Source: an uncultured Actinomycetota bacterium | GTDB lineage: Bacteria > Actinomycetota > Actinomycetes > DATJPE01 | Direction: 5' to 3' | Length of the DNA: 64,000 nucleotides | Assembly (NCBI GenBank): GCA_963819985.1 | Contig: CAWFYH010000002.1 | Span: forward strand, 385,404 to 449,403 | Shown here: positions 32,400 through 59,561 of the stretch, piece after piece | How the letters are laid out: each line of letters opens with the position of its first letter | Position numbering within the stretch: the first letter of the stretch is position 1 | The notes under the pieces: generated by a model | The model's input: only the letters and a program-made list of their open reading frames with translations | Told to the model about the DNA's origin: nothing | The model's database searches: none | Program-made: the position numbers and the translations under genes

Positions 32400-32462
32400 A
32401 GTATGCGCAGACTGAAGTTTGCGCAGACTGAAGTTCGCGCATACTGAAGGTCAAGCATTCTG
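32400..32462. promoter_or_regulatory. Four tandem 16-bp direct repeats (ACTGAAGTnTGCGCAg) upstream of the L,D-transpeptidase gene; putative transcription-factor operator
   Basis: ACTGAAGTATGCGCAG / ACTGAAGTTTGCGCAG / ACTGAAGTTCGCGCAT / ACTGAAGGTCAAGCAT are followed by another TTGCGCAT half-site and a TTGACG -35-like hexamer just before the GTG at 32519. Confidence 0.5.
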
Positions 32463-51653: not shown

Positions 51654-51718
51654 CTAGACGTGAGAGTGGGGCGCCGGTAGCTGACCGGCGCCCCACACTG
51701 CATCGGATGTACGGCAGA

Positions 51719-52998: not shown

Positions 52999-54652
52999 CG
53001 GCTCTCCCTTCGTTGGTCCCCTCAATAGAAGGACGCGGTGGCGGCCCTCCGATGACGACGTCCACGACGGTGCCACCGTCGTCGCGTGGCTCCACGCTCA
53101 ACGTCGCGCCTATCCTTGTTGCTCGTTCACGCATGATTTCAAGACCGTAGCTGTCCGAGCGTCCCGCACCGAGACCCTCTCCGTCGTCCTCGACACGCAG
53201 GAGGGCCGTAGGTGGGGCGATTCGGCAGGTTACCCACAGGTTCTTGGCCCGAGCATGCTTGCGCACATTCGTGATGGCCTCTTGGGCGATTCGCAGCATC
53301 TCGGCCTCGGTGTCCGCCCGCAGGCGGCTGGGCGACTCATCGAGCACCAGGTGGACCGTGAGGGGCGAGGTTGCGCCGATGCCTCGGGCGTAGTCGGACA
53401 GGGCTGCCCCCAACCCCATGGTTGGCTGGACCTCGCTGCGGAGGTCGAAGATGGAAAGGCGCAGCTCGCTGATGATCCGGGTGAGCTCGTGGCGGAGTTC
53501 TTGGAGCTGCTGGCGTTGCTCTTCGTTGTCTGCGCGGTAGGAGAGGTCGTCGACCGCGTAGCCGAGCGAGGCGAGCTCCTGCGCGATCCCGTCGTGGATC
53601 TCCCGAGCAAGTCGACGTCGCTCTTCGGCCGTAGCGATCGACCTGACCTCGGAGAAGAGCAAGGCCGTCTCCAGGCGCAGTGCCCCATCGGCGACCGCTG
53701 CGGCTCCTTCATCGAGCTGTTCCTCGGTGAAAGCGGCTTCGGTGCGCTCAATTCCTACGAGGCCGATTGTGCGCACTCCTACCCGGAGCGGTAGGACGGC
53801 TGAGTAGCCGCCTGACCCGGCTGTGAACGTTCCTTGGCGGCGTTGGGGGTGGCCAGTGGTCCAGGCCTCTGCCCAGGCGGAGTCGTCGTCGAGCGCAGGG
53901 GTCCAGTCCGCCCGGTCGACCCCGGCGAACGCCATCGGCACCAAGCGACCGCCTTCAGAGCGCACATAGACCGCAGCGCGGGAGAAGAACACTCCAGAAC
54001 GGAGACTCTGGAGCATCCCCTGGGACAACGAGACAGGGTCGAGCCCGCCGGACAGCTGCCGCGAGACGACCCGCAGCTGCGACAGGAGTCGATAGGCGGC
54101 CGTGTAGGAGGACTGGCTGGCTTCGATCTGTTGGTCGCGCACCCGGCGGACCCAGGCGGCCAGCAGGCCCAAGGCGAGGGCCAGCACGATCCACTGTGAG
54201 ACGTAGGTGATGTAGTTGCGAACGTCCTCGGGCGGTTCGTTCGCCACGCCAGCAGCGACAAAGACCGCAGAGGACAGCCCGGTGACCAGGATCACCGCGC
54301 TCACTCCTCCGACCAGGCCGGCCTCCAACGCCGGCGCGGCCAGATACGGCAGCAGGGCGGACGAAAGCTCGCCGTTCCCCGCGATCAACCAGGTGGCTGC
54401 CACCGCCTCGACCACGGGTCTCCACCAGGTCACCACAGCGCTCCGGACCGGGATCGAGGCGAGCACCGCGATGAGCAGCAGCCCCAACAGCGCCCCCGGC
54501 TTGGCGTCCGCCGTGCCATCGATGATGGCCAACCCGAGACACAGGCCATAGACGACCGCGCGTCCGACCACCGCCACCAGCGGCAGGTCGGACAGCGACC
54601 TCGGGCGTCCCTCCACCCCCCAAGGGTCGCAGACGTACGCCGAATCCCCCAT
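52973..54652 (-). CDS. Sensor histidine kinase, NarL-partner type (HisKA_3 plus HATPase_c), multi-TM N-terminus
   Basis: About 5 N-terminal TM helices. H-box EIHDGIAQELASL (HisKA_3). ATPase domain with N and G boxes (...EAITNVRKHA..., DDGEGLG). Start at MGDSAYV. Confidence 0.85.
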   Translation of the reverse strand: MGDSAYVCDPWGVEGRPRSLSDLPLVAVVGRAVVYGLCLGLAIIDGTADAKPGALLGLLLIAVLASIPVRSAVVTWWRPVVEAVAATWLIAGNGELSSALLPYLAAPALEAGLVGGVSAVILVTGLSSAVFVAAGVANEPPEDVRNYITYVSQWIVLALALGLLAAWVRRVRDQQIEASQSSYTAAYRLLSQLRVVSRQLSGGLDPVSLSQGMLQSLRSGVFFSRAAVYVRSEGGRLVPMAFAGVDRADWTPALDDDSAWAEAWTTGHPQRRQGTFTAGSGGYSAVLPLRVGVRTIGLVGIERTEAAFTEEQLDEGAAAVADGALRLETALLFSEVRSIATAEERRRLAREIHDGIAQELASLGYAVDDLSYRADNEEQRQQLQELRHELTRIISELRLSIFDLRSEVQPTMGLGAALSDYARGIGATSPLTVHLVLDESPSRLRADTEAEMLRIAQEAITNVRKHARAKNLWVTCRIAPPTALLRVEDDGEGLGAGRSDSYGLEIMRERATRIGATLSVEPRDDGGTVVDVVIGGPPPRPSIEGTNEGRAGAYDGAAR

Positions 54653-55748
54653 GTTGACGCCCGCCGAACGGGTGAGCGGCGGGTGGGCCGTGCGGCGTGT
54701 CTTCGAGCATTCCCCCCCGAGAGCCGCCGCACTTCGCCAGACTGCTCGGGTGGAACAACTGCGCGCACTCAGCGAGGTCCTGAGCACGTCCGACGGTCAG
54801 CTCAGCGCCGGGAAGTCAGCCGCAGCTCGGGTGTGGGGGACTGGTTTCGAGCCCCTCGACGCCTATCTCAACGGTGGGTTGCGGTCGGGCGAGCTCACGC
54901 TCGTCGGCGGGCCCCAGGGTTTGGGCAAGACGACCTGGGTGTTGCAGTTGATTCGCAACGTCGTGGCCGCTGGCCAGCCGGCGCTGTATTTCTCCTACGA
55001 GCACGACGCGCCACTCATTCTCGAGCGCGTCCTTGCCGTCGAGGCTGGCCTCCAGCTGGGGGTCGAGGCTCTGCCGCTCAAGCGCATCCGCGAGGCCATG
55101 GAGGCGGGGGACGGCCGCAGCGGCACGCTCGCCGAGCGTTTGCGGGAGACCCACGGCGGCGCGGAGGCCGTTCGCGCTGTCCAGGCGTGGGGTGATCGGC
55201 TGTTCGTCCACCGCTCCAGCGGCACGACGACGAGCATCGAGGTCATCCGGGACGCTGTGGAGCAGGTGCGTTCGGCATCGGGGGCACAGCCGCTCGTCGT
55301 CGTCGACTACCTGCAGAAGGTCGCCATGCCGGGTGGCCCGGAGTTCGAGGACGAGCGCGTCACCTCCACCGTGGAGGCGCTCAAGGACCTGTCCCTGGAT
55401 GCGGACGTGCCCGTTGTGGCCATCGTGGCCGCCGACCGGGAGGGCATCGCCTCGGGTCGCCGACTTCGCACTCACCACCTGCGGGGTTCCTCGGCGCTGG
55501 CCTACGAGGCCGATGTGGTGCTGCTGTTCAACGACAAGTACGACGTTGTCGCGCGCCACCACCTCATCTATGACGTCAGCAACGCGGAGCGGTTCCGTAA
55601 CTTCGCGATCATGTCGATCGAGAAGAACCGCAACGGCCTCGACCACATCGACCTGGAGTTTCGTAAGCGCTTCGAGCAGGGGCGCTTCGAGCCAGATGGT
55701 CGCGTCGTGTCCGAGCAGCTCGTCGACGAGCGCGTCTACGTCGAGTAG
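54651..55748 (+). CDS. KaiC/RecA/DnaB-C-terminal-domain-like P-loop ATPase (single domain)
   Basis: Walker A GGPQGLGKTT, Walker B LVVVDYLQK, and a RecA-like core. The start is uncertain: the ATG at 54651 overlaps the divergent HK start codon. Confidence 0.6.
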   Translation: MLTPAERVSGGWAVRRVFEHSPPRAAALRQTARVEQLRALSEVLSTSDGQLSAGKSAAARVWGTGFEPLDAYLNGGLRSGELTLVGGPQGLGKTTWVLQLIRNVVAAGQPALYFSYEHDAPLILERVLAVEAGLQLGVEALPLKRIREAMEAGDGRSGTLAERLRETHGGAEAVRAVQAWGDRLFVHRSSGTTTSIEVIRDAVEQVRSASGAQPLVVVDYLQKVAMPGGPEFEDERVTSTVEALKDLSLDADVPVVAIVAADREGIASGRRLRTHHLRGSSALAYEADVVLLFNDKYDVVARHHLIYDVSNAERFRNFAIMSIEKNRNGLDHIDLEFRKRFEQGRFEPDGRVVSEQLVDERVYVE

Positions 55749-55767
55749 CTACGCCGTCAAGGCCGTG

Positions 55768-55815
55768 AGTTGGTAGACAGAACGGGCGCTCTAGCGCCCG
55801 TTCTGCCTACCAACT
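55768..55815. repeat. 48-bp palindromic element, copy 1 (23-bp inverted arms)
   Basis: AGTTGGTAGaCAGAACGGGCGCT-CT-AGCGCCCGTTCTGCCTACCAACT. One mismatch between the arms. Lies between the convergent KaiC-like and DUF559 genes. Confidence 0.85.
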
Positions 55816-56853
55816 GATCTGGAGGCCGAGGGCCCGCGCCAGCCGACGCGCGACGCCTGCGGGGTCGCATCGCAGAGCTGAAGCGGCGACGCGCACGACG
55901 AGGGCGTCCTCTGCGATGGCCAGGTCGCTTTGTCGGTCCATGTCATCCCACCAACGCAGGGCGTCGAGATGGACGCCACCATCGACCTCGAGGTGGACCG
56001 CTCGTCCATCGGCACGGCGGTACCACCCGTCCAGGTAGCGCCGACGACCTTTGGAGTCTCGACGTACCCCCTGCCGGAGGGGTTGAGGCAGGCCGTAGCG
56101 GGAGCTCAGCTGGGACAAGTCGAGCTCAGCCATCGACTGAACGCCGCCCTCCGCGTCGATCAGCAGTCGGCGGAGCGCCTTGCTGTGCCGAATTTGACCC
56201 GCTGTGTCGAGCACGTCGAGTAGACCGTCGATGCGTACCAGACGCTGCTGAATCGCCGCCAGGACAAGCCCGCAGGCCTGGCGGCGATTGCGCGTCCAAC
56301 TAGCGGCGTCGACGACCGCCCGCTCCGGCCGCACGATCGGCAGAGCCCGGCTCGGATGCCGATTCTCCTCCCTCAGCCGCCGAGACACGTGCACCCTCAT
56401 CCAGGGCAGCGATCGAGTACGGCATCCGTGGCCCACCACCACGTGGACGGTGTCACGTTCGAACCCGCGAAGCCCCCAGACCTCCGCTGCAGTCCACGCG
56501 CACACCAGCGCCCCAGAGCCAGCGTGAGTGACGGCCACCCAGCAGCGCGTCTCCTGGCTGAGCGGCCCGCGATGCAGCACGACAGCACGACCGACCAGTC
56601 GCCACCGCCGCGCTCGGAGATGGTCGCGAAGCTGATGACGATTCACACCAACGCTCGCCAACTGTTGTCGGCTAAGGACACCTGCTTGTTGGTCGGCCAG
56701 ATCTGCAACATCTTGATTGGGGAGCGCTGACAGTGGCCGCGACAGCAGCCACGAACCCTGAGGCAGAGCGTCTGGAGCAAGCTGCCAACCGACTGTCATG
56801 GCAACACTTTGGGCCAGTCCGAGGCAGTACGGCGCCCTGTCCACAGCCCGCAT
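55807..56853 (-). CDS. DUF559 domain protein (Vsr/restriction-endonuclease-like fold), with N-terminal AbiEi-like region
   Basis: C-terminal RYLDGWYRRADGRAVHLEVDGGVHLD...RQSDLAIAEDALVVRV matches the DUF559 pattern. The gene is flanked by identical palindromic repeats. Confidence 0.65.
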   Translation of the reverse strand: MRAVDRAPYCLGLAQSVAMTVGWQLAPDALPQGSWLLSRPLSALPNQDVADLADQQAGVLSRQQLASVGVNRHQLRDHLRARRWRLVGRAVVLHRGPLSQETRCWVAVTHAGSGALVCAWTAAEVWGLRGFERDTVHVVVGHGCRTRSLPWMRVHVSRRLREENRHPSRALPIVRPERAVVDAASWTRNRRQACGLVLAAIQQRLVRIDGLLDVLDTAGQIRHSKALRRLLIDAEGGVQSMAELDLSQLSSRYGLPQPLRQGVRRDSKGRRRYLDGWYRRADGRAVHLEVDGGVHLDALRWWDDMDRQSDLAIAEDALVVRVAASALRCDPAGVARRLARALGLQISW

Positions 56854-56866
56854 CCCCGAAGCCGCG

Positions 56867-56914
56867 AGTTGGTAGGCAGAACGGGCGCTACAGCGCCCGT
56901 TCTGCCTACCAACT
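56867..56914. repeat. 48-bp palindromic element, copy 2 (perfect 23-bp inverted arms)
   Basis: AGTTGGTAGGCAGAACGGGCGCT-AC-AGCGCCCGTTCTGCCTACCAACT, immediately upstream of the DUF559 start. Same sequence as copy 1. Confidence 0.85.
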
Positions 56915-56949
56915 CAGAGCAGCAGGAGGCGGAGTTGCGACGGCTGCGG

Positions 56950-59561
56950 TCAGAGGCCGTAGTCGATGCGTTCGGCAGCCGCTCGGTCGTCCTGGTCGCG
57001 TAGGTCGCCAAGCACCCGAGAGAGCTGTCGTGCATCCAACGCCGCGCTCAGGATGTCCGCGGATGCCTCGGCCAGTCGGGCGAGACTGAGCAGGTCCCGC
57101 TCGGCGAATGGCGGATCATCGTCGCGGGCGATGAGCAGGATGCCGCCCACAGCGCGCACTGGAGCCGCCACGAGATGTTTGTGGGACGCGAGCGGGGCAC
57201 CGGCCAGCGGCAGCCGCGCCACGTCGGTGCGGTCGATGATGACCCCCTTGTGGCGGCTGGCGATGGTGGTGACCAGCCATGCGTCACCTTGGAGCACGAA
57301 GCGATGCTCCAGCCGTCGCAGACCTTCCCCGGCGGCTACCCGCCAGACGTCTCCGTCGGGCAGCAGGAGGGCCCCGGCCGTGGCGTTCGTGCGGGCGAGA
57401 GCGTCGCTGACGACGAGCGAGCCGGCCTCGATGACACCGTAGACCTCGTGACTGCGGCCAAGCAGGGCACGTACGAGCGCCGGCGTGGACCGTGGATCAT
57501 CCGGCATCGAGTCGCGCAGGTCAACGACCGAAACTGACGTAGGAATGGGGCTTGGGCCTGACGCGTCGAAATGGGTCATGGGGACCGTCGGCGGATCCAG
57601 CTCGGGGACCACTGGCGGCACCGAGTTGGGCGCGTCGCGCCAGTCCTCCAGCGGCGCCTGGCCGGCGCCTGGCCTCCCGCCAGGCGCCTTGAAGACCTGG
57701 CTGAGATCGACCGTCGGGGTTTCGTCTCTGTCACTCGGCGCCAGCGAGTTGGCGAACGCGGAGCTTGGCTCGGGTGCCGTGATCGGGCCAAGGTCTTCAG
57801 ACATCAGGTCAACGGATGCGAAGCGCAGCGAAGCCATTTCGGCGTAGACCCCAGCGCGCTGTGTCGGCGTCGGGGTAGCTGCTGGCTGTTGGGCTTCAGT
57901 CGTGGTGGATTCGAGGACGTAGCTTGCAGCTGGGGCGACCACGACCACGGGCTCGGTGTCTTTGGGTTCCCAGGATGACGGAGCGGGCTCATCCAGCGGT
58001 GGCTCCGACGCAGGGACAGGTGCCGGGACAGCGGACTTGGCGTTGGCCTTGGCAGCGGCGGCACGAGTCCGCTTGCGCTTGGCCGGTGCTCGCGCGGGGG
58101 CAGCCTCCGCAGGCACCTCGGTGTCGATGGCCTCCGCCGTTGCTGACTCTTCAGCAGTGGCTGGTTCGGCGTGCGTTGCAGTGGCGTACGGCTCGTCCGC
58201 GGGTTCGAGGTCGGCCACTGTGTCGGGAATCGCGGCGAGGCGGTCTTCTTCAGCAGCGCGGGCTTCCTCGGCTGCGAGGCGCTCTTGTTCGACACGGACT
58301 TCTTCTGCGACACGGACTTCTTCTGCGACGCGAGCTTCTTCGGCGGCCGTTCTTCTTCGGCGAGGCGTTCAACTTCGAGGCGACCTTCTTCGGCGAGGCG
58401 TTCTTCTTCGGCGAGGCGTTCTGCTTCGAGGCGGGCTTGTTCGGCGAGGCGTTCTTCTTCGGCGAGGCGTTCTGCTTCGAGGCGGGCTTGTTCGGCGAGG
58501 CGTTCTTCTTCGGCGAGGCGTTCTGCTTCGAGGCGGGCTTGTTCGGCGAGGCGTTCTTCTTCGGCGAGGCGTTCTGCTTCGAGGCGGGCTTGTTCGGCGA
58601 GGCGTTCTTCTTCGGCGAGGCGTTCTGCTTCGAGGCGGGCTTGTTCGGCGAGGCGTTCTTCTTCGGCGAGGCGTTCTGCTTCGAGGCGGGCTTGTTCGGC
58701 GAGGCGTTCTTCTTCGGCGAGGCGTTCTGCTTCGAGGCGGGCTTGTTCGGCGAGGCGTTCTTCTTCGGCGAGGCGTTCTGCTTCGAGGCGGGCTTGTTCG
58801 GCGAGGCGTTCTTCTTCGGCGAGGCGTTCTGCTTCGAGGCGGGCTTGTTCGGCGAGGCGTTCTTCTTCAGCCCGCCGCGCTGCTTCGGCTTCGAGGCGCT
58901 CTTGTTCGAGGCGAGCTTCCTCTGCTAGCCGTTCCTTTTCGAGGCGAGCCTCTTCAGCGGCGCGGGTCGAAGCCTTGTCCTGCTCAGGCGGGGCAGCCTT
59001 GGATCGTCGGCCGAACCGGCGACCTTTGGCAGCCGGTTTCCCTGAAGCTTTCGACTTCGACTTCGACTTGGCCGCATGGCCTGCAGCGGACTGCTGCGGG
59101 TCAGCAACGGGTTCCTCAGGCGCCGCCTCGGGTGGCGCCGCGAGCGGTGCTTCAATTCGCAGCGAGCTGCCAGATGCGCCCTCGCCAACAGCCGCGCCAG
59201 GCTCCATACCCACCTGAGGCAAGGACTGGGCTGTGCCAACAGAGGTGCCGAGCCGGTCCTGGGTAATCGGCGGGTCGAGCACCGCGACCGACGGCCGACT
59301 GCTCGGGTCGAAGGCGTCCCACTCTCCGTGCTTGGACGCCACCAGCAGGGCCGGAGCGGTGAGGCCCTTGTCTCGAAGCATGTCCAAGGTCGCCACGGCA
59401 TCGGCTGGGAGTTCCTGCTCGATCACGACCACGTCCGCCATCCCCGGCGTGATCTCAAGCTTCCCGATCAGGGTGGGGCGCACCTCGATGATTTCATCTG
59501 CGGCGGCACCCAGTCCGAACGACAACGACGGGTTTCGCGCGATGAGGAGCAGGCAGGTCAT
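56950..59561 (-). pseudogene. Large Tad-locus-associated protein: N-terminal about 95-aa domain, ER/K-rich tandem-repeat region (9 x 17 aa), degenerate ER repeats, Ala/Pro-rich linker and C-terminal GAF-like domain; apparent 1-nt frameshift near 58340-58370
   Basis: Frame 1 (ORF 57804..59561) encodes [13 protein letters not shown]... then ([17 protein letters not shown])x9, and becomes R/P/S-rich nonsense after about 58350. Frame 2 has no stop from 58368, continues with a degenerate ER repeat ([38 protein letters not shown]), and runs through ORF 56950..58218 with a GAF-like C-terminal domain (GVIEAGSLVVSDALARTN...GGILLIARDD). Together these indicate a single disrupted or mis-assembled gene. 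Confidence 0.5.
58370..58900 (-). repeat. Nine near-identical 51-nt tandem repeats encoding an ER/K-rich single-alpha-helix-like motif
   Basis: Plus-strand unit GTTCTTCTTCGGCGAGGCGTTCTGCTTCGAGGCGGGCTTGTTCGGCGAGGC is repeated head-to-tail. All six frames are open across it, which explains the stacked ORFs in the track. Confidence 0.9.

Follow-up and report, generated by a model that had tools for sequence, protein, structure and literature searches.

Why does a single nuclease gene lie between two copies of the same long palindrome, and is the arrangement the mark of a mobile unit? The question is raised by a locus in a 64,000-nucleotide (nt) stretch of DNA from an uncultured Actinomycetota bacterium (assembly GCA_963819985.1, contig CAWFYH010000002.1, positions 385,404 to 449,403; this whole stretch is referred to below as the window), where an open reading frame (ORF) for a predicted nuclease is flanked on either side by a palindrome of about 48 base pairs (bp). 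In REPtrons, a single-copy and mostly vertically inherited RAYT (TnpA-REP) gene is bracketed by dispersed palindromic repeats that consist of a motif and a covarying stem (PMC8266576, PMC5581495). On balance, we favor the reading that the window's locus is a unit of this general kind, in which a single-copy nuclease gene is accompanied by cognate ~48-bp palindromes, solo copies of the palindrome are found mostly just past gene ends, and the cassette as a whole can be gained and lost.

The features of the locus, in window coordinates, are the following.

55768..55815, no strand: gene-downstream palindrome copy, 48 bp, arms of 23 nt, loop CT, one mismatch
56866..56915, no strand: gene-upstream palindrome copy, perfect, 24-nt arms, 2-nt loop AC
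55807..56853, minus strand: nuclease ORF, intact, 348 codons
56566..56715, minus strand: winged-helix segment, ORF residues 47-96, matching Pfam AbiEi_4
55891..56031, minus strand: nuclease core segment, ORF residues ~275-321, with the motif YLD...hLEVDGxxH...D..R
54651-55748, plus strand: left neighbor, a DnaB_C/KaiC-like ATPase
56950-58218, minus strand: right neighbor, a GAF-like protein, upstream of tad/Flp pilus genes

An initial annotation of this DNA had described two perfect 48-bp palindromes that precisely bracket the gene. The positions were confirmed and the right copy is indeed perfect, but the left copy carries one mismatch, an A at 55777 in place of a G, which makes a G·T wobble on the gene strand, and the centers of the two copies are unlike (the left copy has CT, the right one AC). 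The left palindrome does overlap the 3' end of the nuclease ORF, whose final two codons and stop it holds, and lies 19 nt past the stop codon of the DnaB_C-like gene. The right palindrome lies 35 nt past the stop codon of the GAF-like gene and is separated from the ATG at 56853 by 13 nt, not 14 as had been annotated. Because homologues begin at about residue 40 of the window ORF, ATG 56799 is the more likely true start; it would give a protein of 330 amino acids (aa) and a distance of 67 nt to the palindrome. The ATPase and tad-side neighbors had been named correctly, while the suggestion of an insertion scar finds no support, the gene being intact.

By a wide margin, the two palindromes are the best and longest inverted repeats of the window, and the hairpins predicted for them on either strand reach -54 to -62 kcal/mol (z = -7 to -10). 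No copy besides these two was found in the window with up to three mismatches allowed per 23-nt arm, and the exact palindrome arm had no match in species-representative genomes or in viral contigs. Searches of Rfam 15 returned sub-threshold matches only, nearly all of them to eukaryotic microRNA precursors, as happens with any long hairpin. No compositional anomaly was seen in the nuclease-gene region of the window. The presence of just two copies in the window would suit chance or a functionless local duplication, but none of 100 dinucleotide shuffles of the window produced a palindrome match, and the same architecture recurs in 61 of 72 independent loci and shows strong covariation, as described below. 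We regard this explanation as excluded, its probability being close to nil.

To see the locus in its family, 80 homologue loci from 80 different assemblies, all of them Actinomycetota, were collected; the taxa sampled were Nocardioidaceae, Propionibacteriaceae, Promicromonospora, Oerskovia, Cellulomonas, Jatrophihabitans, Frankiales and Micromonospora. A 38-sequence alignment was too diverse for finding loci, and a 15-sequence alignment was used. When the two 450-nt flanks of each gene were aligned with each other, the best local alignment scored at least 18 in 61 of the 72 loci with full flanks, while control flanks shifted by 2.4-3.6 kb (n = 263) had a mean of 12 and a 95th percentile of 14. 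The sequence common to both flanks was nearly always a palindrome of 44-52 bp, its upstream copy lying ~100-270 nt before the protein match and its downstream copy 0-60 nt behind it. Per kb, gene flanks contained 1.04 long palindromes and the remainder of these loci 0.03, a 35-fold difference.

The repeats that accompany the gene differ from lineage to lineage. At L001 (homologue loci are designated by L numbers), where the protein is 61% identical to that of the window and the gene context is another one, hairpin repeats of a different sequence are present on both sides. The GGTAGGC palindrome type was seen only with the closest relatives of the window protein, at L204 (81% identity), L205 (66%), L050, and L001 (in the variant GTTAGGC), and extra palindromes near a gene belonged for the most part to the class found in its flanks. 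A 30%-identical homologue at L110 is flanked by a palindrome class of its own. Judged by these comparisons, palindrome type appears to follow the protein tree.

Each assembly yielded one family locus, so that the multiple divergent copies per genome expected by the initial annotation were not found for this nuclease subfamily (80 loci from 80 assemblies). The family is chromosomal: searches for it gave no plasmid matches, and phage records gave one weak match. Synteny of the loci was kept within families, gene context varied among lineages, and the window's neighbors were found at none of 81 homologue loci; the unit therefore appears to be usually inherited vertically and to be placed differently in each lineage.

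Several single loci deserve mention. At L110 (4079-5573), several tandem copies of the palindrome CAAGCTGGAC...GTCCAGCTTG surround the 30%-identical family member, and TTGTCAG-type solo copies lie on the same contig, 5-8 kb from the gene. Because both palindrome classes are present on one contig, two repeat systems may coexist in this genome. Palindromes of the family also bracket a 616-aa TypA/BipA-like GTPase gene at L007 (5894-8312) and a 224-aa ORF at L020 (5895-6697; function unchecked), so bracketing is not exclusive to the nuclease gene. At L050 (5001-5832), the homologue is split over two frames, as a pseudogene or through a homopolymer error in a long-read metagenome-assembled genome (MAG), and both palindromes carry the same three A·C mismatches. 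Frameshifts in long-read MAGs are ambiguous as pseudogene markers, and clear pseudogenes were few.

The common anatomy of the element was derived from a dyad-anchored profile built from 83 flanking hairpins. Positions 22-16 from the dyad read TTGTCAG (T 75%, T 74%, G 90% and T 89% at the first four positions, G 83% at the last), the center reads GCYA|TRGC, similar to GCTATAGC, about 11 variable positions lie between heptamer and center, and the median element length is 48. The window element is a variant of this family, AGTTGGTAG...GCTNNAGC...CTACCAACT, with the heptamer TTGGTAG in place of TTGTCAG. The GTAG of the window variant is not kept across the family, and the conserved heptamer lies inside the stem, in both arms.

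The stem is variable in sequence and conserved in pairing. Two-sided changes were found at 13 of 13 variable pairs among 60 distinct solo 48-mers, with a covariation score of 0.45 versus 0.13 after shuffling (0.45 was reached by 0 of 500 shuffles) and 0.07-0.11 with slid partners. Compensated changes were also seen between related genomes (among L016, L019 and L020, and in L010 versus L025), and at L010, L025 and L007 the two copies of one locus differ from each other, each being still self-complementary. The mismatches present in flanking palindromes were 27 G·T versus 29 A·C, with no strand bias. The lack of a preference for G·T points to symmetry at the level of DNA and speaks against a hairpin that acts only in the gene's mRNA; the idea of a sense-strand RNA hairpin was dropped, there being no G·U bias. 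Since the inner sequence varies freely, base-specific binding by a symmetric dimer cannot account for the symmetry, while intrastrand pairing, or regeneration of the palindrome from hairpins, can.

Two further ideas about the element were dropped. The model of an element with 24-bp inverted ends that enters a solo palindrome at its dyad does not agree with the differing yet self-complementary copies, and the resemblance of TTGTCAG to the PafBC/RecA-NDp promoter fails because the spacing is unfit and the following bases are variable. In the 83 palindromes (from L003-L080 and the window), the center of the downstream copy was purine-rich on the gene sense strand in 17 versus 3 cases, the corresponding figures for upstream copies being 10 versus 15. 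At L020 (6614-6697), a longer family palindrome, CCTGTCAGAAGCCCGCGCACG...CGTGCGCGGGCTTCTGACAGG, has another one, TGTCAGACAC...GTCTGACA, embedded precisely at its dyad, an arrangement that hints at new copies being inserted at the center of existing palindromes.

The same anatomy bears on the initial annotation's comparison with integron cassettes. An attC site has RYYYAAC (R'') on its 5' side, GTTRRRY on its 3' side and extrahelical bases, and is used by a linked IntI integrase. Here, one gene does lie between palindromes of attC-like length, and the ends of the L001 palindrome, GTTAGGC...GCCTAAC, agree letter by letter with GTTRRRY and RYYYAAC. However, the motif order 5'-GTTRRRY...RYYYAAC-3' is the reverse of that in attC, the motif of most family members is TTGTCAG, the near-perfect stems lack the extrahelical bases of attC, no integrase is encoded in the window region or in the surveyed 10-kb flanks, no cassette arrays were seen, and the gene family is constant, in contrast to diverse integron cargo. 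An integron-type gene cassette with attC-like boundaries is thus excluded as well, its probability being very small.

The protein encoded between the palindromes consists, as predicted by its structure model, of an AbiEi-fold sequence-specific DNA-binding module followed by a C-terminal PD-(D/E)XK nuclease of the Vsr/DUF559 type. The AlphaFold2 model has a pLDDT of 93. Foldseek searches with the N-terminal ~200 residues matched AbiEi (6Y8Q; E = 6e-5, probability 1.0) and Rv2827c (1ZEL; E = 4e-4), and the C-terminal part gave weak matches to PD-(D/E)XK nucleases (TnsA, AdnAB, Cas4). It is because an AbiEi-like N-terminal fold and a nuclease core occur in one chain that we read the protein as a DNA-binding module fused to a nuclease. 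In Pfam, the window protein matched AbiEi_4 alone (E = 2.6e-4; 21.5 bits, under the curated cut-off of 25); it had no match in NCBIfam and none to PF04480 (DUF559) at E <= 0.01, and Y1_Tnp (HUH) was not detected by Pfam or NCBIfam. The DUF559 label of the initial annotation, which has no direct Pfam match in the window protein behind it, stands at the level of the family: 11 of 38 homologues match PF04480 (16 match AbiEi_4 and three MTES_1575), and the family profile matches the DUF559 structure PDB 3HRL (E = 0.009) over the hvEvDGxxH...D..R core. Homologues are ~310 aa long, and some are labeled DUF559, PDDEXK or Vsr-like in their sources. The window protein keeps every acidic residue that is invariant in the family, the family invariants being D236, E250, G253 and D265 (numbered as in the trimmed sequence of 309 residues). 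At 50% identity, the family comprises 2,113 clusters at E <= 1e-30 and ~17,000 at E <= 1e-10.

Publicly available gene calls often miss part of this protein. P0001, P0011 and P0028 are cut to ~193-204 aa and begin at an internal M(K/R)VHVSRRL; of these, P0001 is a 193-aa fragment that is 99% identical to the window protein. At L001 (6275-7222), a spurious opposite-strand ORF was called across the 5' half of the gene, and the full 315-aa ORF is open.

Copies of the palindrome away from the gene were sought in JGI soil metagenomes with the pattern ACTTGTCAG-N26-34-CTGACAAGT, which gave at least 124 matches in at least 120 contigs. Of the 124 matches listed, 108 were exactly 48 nt long and had the family center; in viral contigs, searched with the same pattern as a background control, there were nine matches and none of them (0/9) had this length. 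Among the matches listed, about five contigs carried the gene beside the match, and those with at least 1.4 kb on both sides comprised 18 solo copies versus one gene-adjacent copy. Solo copies were intergenic and, again among the matches listed, lay between tandem genes in 16 cases, convergent genes in nine and divergent genes in three. One subfamily recurred, amid unrelated flanks, in nine or more contigs, its copies sharing a palindromic CCG|...|CGG extension; no direct target-site duplication was seen around nine near-identical solo copies. In the homologue loci, too, a few extra copies lie at distances of kilobases from the nuclease gene: in L007 they surround typA, and in L020 the 224-aa ORF. 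Such distant copies mostly match the flanking type of their genome. The comparison with REP sequences and miniature inverted-repeat transposable elements (MITEs) made in the initial annotation is thus apt as far as a dispersed, REP-like palindrome family is concerned, but not for a MITE of the DDE type, no target-site duplication having been found.

The positions of the solo copies, few of which are divergent, and the AbiEi fold of the protein could be taken to mean that the palindromes are regulatory or insulating hairpins only. The upstream palindrome would then be an operator for autoregulation of the AbiEi type, both copies would be factor-independent terminators around a potentially toxic gene, and solo copies would be ordinary terminators of a lineage-specific class, with nothing mobilized by the protein. 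AbiEi proteins reportedly bind inverted repeats in their own promoters, and the window copies, at 19-35 nt past neighboring stop codons, are where terminators could be expected. However, T-runs are absent 3' of both window hairpins, whose tails read GATCTGG and CAGAGCA, and a scan of 55600-57100 found no consensus promoter-like or terminator-like sites, with tools that detect terminators by their U-tract; these hairpins may terminate transcription without one. There is no sense-strand G·U bias, and termination requires neither a heptamer at a fixed distance nor a conserved center. Nor would terminators be expected to occur as near-identical copies at unrelated loci, to share between the upstream and downstream copies a sequence that changes from locus to locus, or to be present or absent together with the whole unit among close relatives. 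We consider hairpins of this kind quite unlikely to be the whole explanation.

The last of these points comes from the window's own site, relatives of which were located through the DnaB_C-like neighbor gene. In L082, this gene is 95% identical at the aa level and 87% at the nt level, and in L083 it is 89% identical (aa). In both, the two neighbors are convergent and close together (109 bp apart in L082, 86 bp in L083), and intact nuclease gene and 48-bp palindrome are both absent from the site. L204 carries the cassette at the window's site; its protein is 81% identical and interrupted by an in-frame stop, and both palindromes are decayed. L082 could have been taken for a pristine empty site, an idea that was dropped, because 41 nt of its spacer match the nuclease coding region (window 56404-56444) at 76% identity, and part of a palindrome arm comes after them. 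Not one of 1000 shuffles scored as high as this 41-nt match, and the spacer is best read, from this alignment, as the remnant of a decayed cassette. L082 also shows what looks like GCCTACCA target homology, but taken by itself this falls short of significance. Flank identities give the order ((window, L082), L204), L083, and the simplest history would be one in which the cassette arrived once the L083 lineage had branched off, stayed intact in the window, was inactivated in L204 and was nearly erased in L082. The window's site thus appears to record a cycle of gain, decay and loss. This supports the cassette proposed in the initial annotation, in that the unit behaves as one that is gained and lost: the site is filled in the window and, by a pseudogene, in L204, while L082 keeps a remnant and L083 has nothing there. 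The same annotation had held that the palindromes would be simple terminators if they were unique to the two sites and if no relative had an empty site; dispersed family palindromes and the empty L083 site were found.

Gain and loss as a unit at this site would also be expected of an autonomous cassette with att-like ends. Such a cassette would enter a solo palindrome by recombination or break repair, leave two direct copies and exit by recombination, and solo palindromes would be its landing pads or footprints, not products of the nuclease. This alternative draws further support from the orientation of flanking copies, whose similarity is higher when they are compared as direct repeats than as inverted ones (18 versus 5 loci, p = 0.011), from the one arm asymmetry shared by both L050 copies, from the different gene contexts among lineages and from the L020 palindrome nested exactly at the dyad of another. 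Against it, neither the empty site of L083 nor the remnant site of L082 contains one intact palindrome, and the copies at L010, L025 and L007 differ in their inner stems yet are self-complementary, which is unexpected if they were assembled from arms of target and element. Moreover, there is a single gene copy per genome, synteny is kept over the long term, and no recombinase is encoded. We regard an att-like cassette as unlikely.

If the favored reading of a REPtron-like unit is correct, the following mechanism can be envisaged. The winged-helix module would recognize the outer heptamer (TTGTCAG, or TTGGTAG here), 16-22 nt from the dyad, and the palindrome would be recognized in its extruded state, as hairpin or cruciform. 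This structure would be cut by the nuclease, and host repair or replication would copy or restore palindromes, preferentially beside the gene. Occasionally, the whole palindrome-gene-palindrome cassette would be gained, later to decay and be lost. In its strongest form, the proposal is that of a second, independently evolved palindrome-propagating system, in which an AbiEi-guided Vsr-fold nuclease cuts extruded 48-bp palindromes and hairpin-templated repair or copying keeps them self-complementary and seeds new copies. We put this form forward tentatively, as a possibility that may well turn out to be wrong.

Several observations weigh against a propagating unit of this kind. Solo copies are absent from the window and from two relatives (21 kb each); because of this, the element may be limited to the vicinity of the gene in the window's lineage, where it may occur with the gene only. 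The dispersal data come from metagenome contigs and locus stretches. Because solo copies occupy terminator positions, a host function could maintain them without the nuclease. The direct-orientation bias of flanking copies is equally well fitted by duplication, gene conversion or att-like integration. Finally, the family enzyme is not an HUH transposase, and we know of no copy-out activity of PD-(D/E)XK nucleases.

How does the unit compare with known systems? The likeness to REPtrons lies in a nuclease-type gene that is single-copy, is mostly inherited vertically and has short palindromes on both sides, in repeats that combine a short conserved motif with a variable stem kept paired, in a repeat type that covaries with protein lineage, and in the possible presence of more than one system on one contig (L110). 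Repeats are also intergenic, their dispersal being seen here across metagenome contigs. The differences are that the enzyme combines an AbiEi fold with a PD-(D/E)XK nuclease and is not a HUH Y1 transposase; that the element is a near-perfect 48-bp palindrome with the motif in both stem arms, whereas a REP consists of an asymmetric GTAG followed by a stem-loop; that the copies on the two sides of the gene tend toward direct orientation, which REPs around RAYT genes do not; and that the host phylum is Actinomycetota, with a copy number that looks low in the window's lineage. The system thus has a REPtron-like organization but is no member of the RAYT family.

Other systems share less with it. 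Its first ~200 residues have the fold of AbiEi (6Y8Q; Rv2827c, 1ZEL) of AbiE type IV toxin-antitoxin systems, but the AbiEi module is fused to a nuclease here, the neighbors are a DnaB_C-like ATPase and a GAF-like protein with no AbiEii nucleotidyltransferase (none is present in L001, L082 or L204 either), and the repeats are found on both sides of the gene and elsewhere. The C-terminal hLEvDGxxH...D..R motif, the 3HRL profile match and the PF04480 matches of homologues link it to DUF559/Vsr-like endonucleases, although the window protein itself is below Pfam detection. As with free-standing homing-endonuclease genes, which pass through invasion, decay and loss, one site is intact, a pseudogene, a remnant or empty among close relatives, but the presumed recognition sites are intact on both sides here instead of being disrupted by the gene, and the nuclease gene is stably syntenic over whole families. 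Hairpin-forming ends and insertion without target-site duplication recall IS200/IS605 elements and their derivatives that bear palindromes, but there is no TnpA (HUH) or TnpB gene, and the palindromes are full and symmetric, not subterminal imperfect hairpins. A search of a library of papers found no link of DUF559 or AbiEi-fusion proteins to flanking palindromes, no description of a TTGTCAG-type motif and no RAYT/REPIN-type system in Actinobacteria. To our knowledge, REP/RAYT is the sole well-studied case of short palindromes with a dedicated single-copy enzyme, and it is essentially confined to Proteobacteria and to HUH chemistry.

Beyond what the initial annotation had noted, the locus has a family-wide association of gene and palindrome, vertical stability in many lineages and an AbiEi-type DNA-binding module. 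Should the favored reading hold, a palindrome-repeat life-style would have evolved more than once, in Actinomycetota by means of an unrelated nuclease, and long-lived intragenomic replicator populations, analogous to REPINs and enzymatically unrelated to them, would exist in this phylum. A very large family of "unknown function" would acquire a function, and the conserved 48-bp intergenic palindromes of soil actinobacteria would be explained. The enzyme would be a nuclease specific for both sequence and structure whose recognition code can be read: a conserved heptamer set at a constant distance from the dyad. In practical terms, gene callers routinely truncate genes of this family and ignore the repeats.

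Some other features of the window were recorded in passing. The right neighbor appears divided between two minus-strand ORFs that overlap and are read in separate frames: 56950-58218 (422 aa), which is GAF-like, and 57804-59561 (585 aa). In their place L082 has one 908-aa gene, which points to misassembly or a frameshift in the window sequence. The 57804-59561 ORF holds a 51-nt tandem array at 58318-58868 (10.8 copies, 97% identity) that codes for 16-letter peptide repeats. Two more inverted repeats, both unrelated to the nuclease-gene palindrome family, are a G+C-rich hairpin with 16-nt arms at 51663-51699 (AGAGTGGGGCGCCGGT/ACCGGCGCCCCACACT) and an imperfect palindrome with 23-nt arms at 32400-32445 (AGTATGCGCAGACTGAAGTTTGC/GCAGACTGAAGTTCGCGCATACT).

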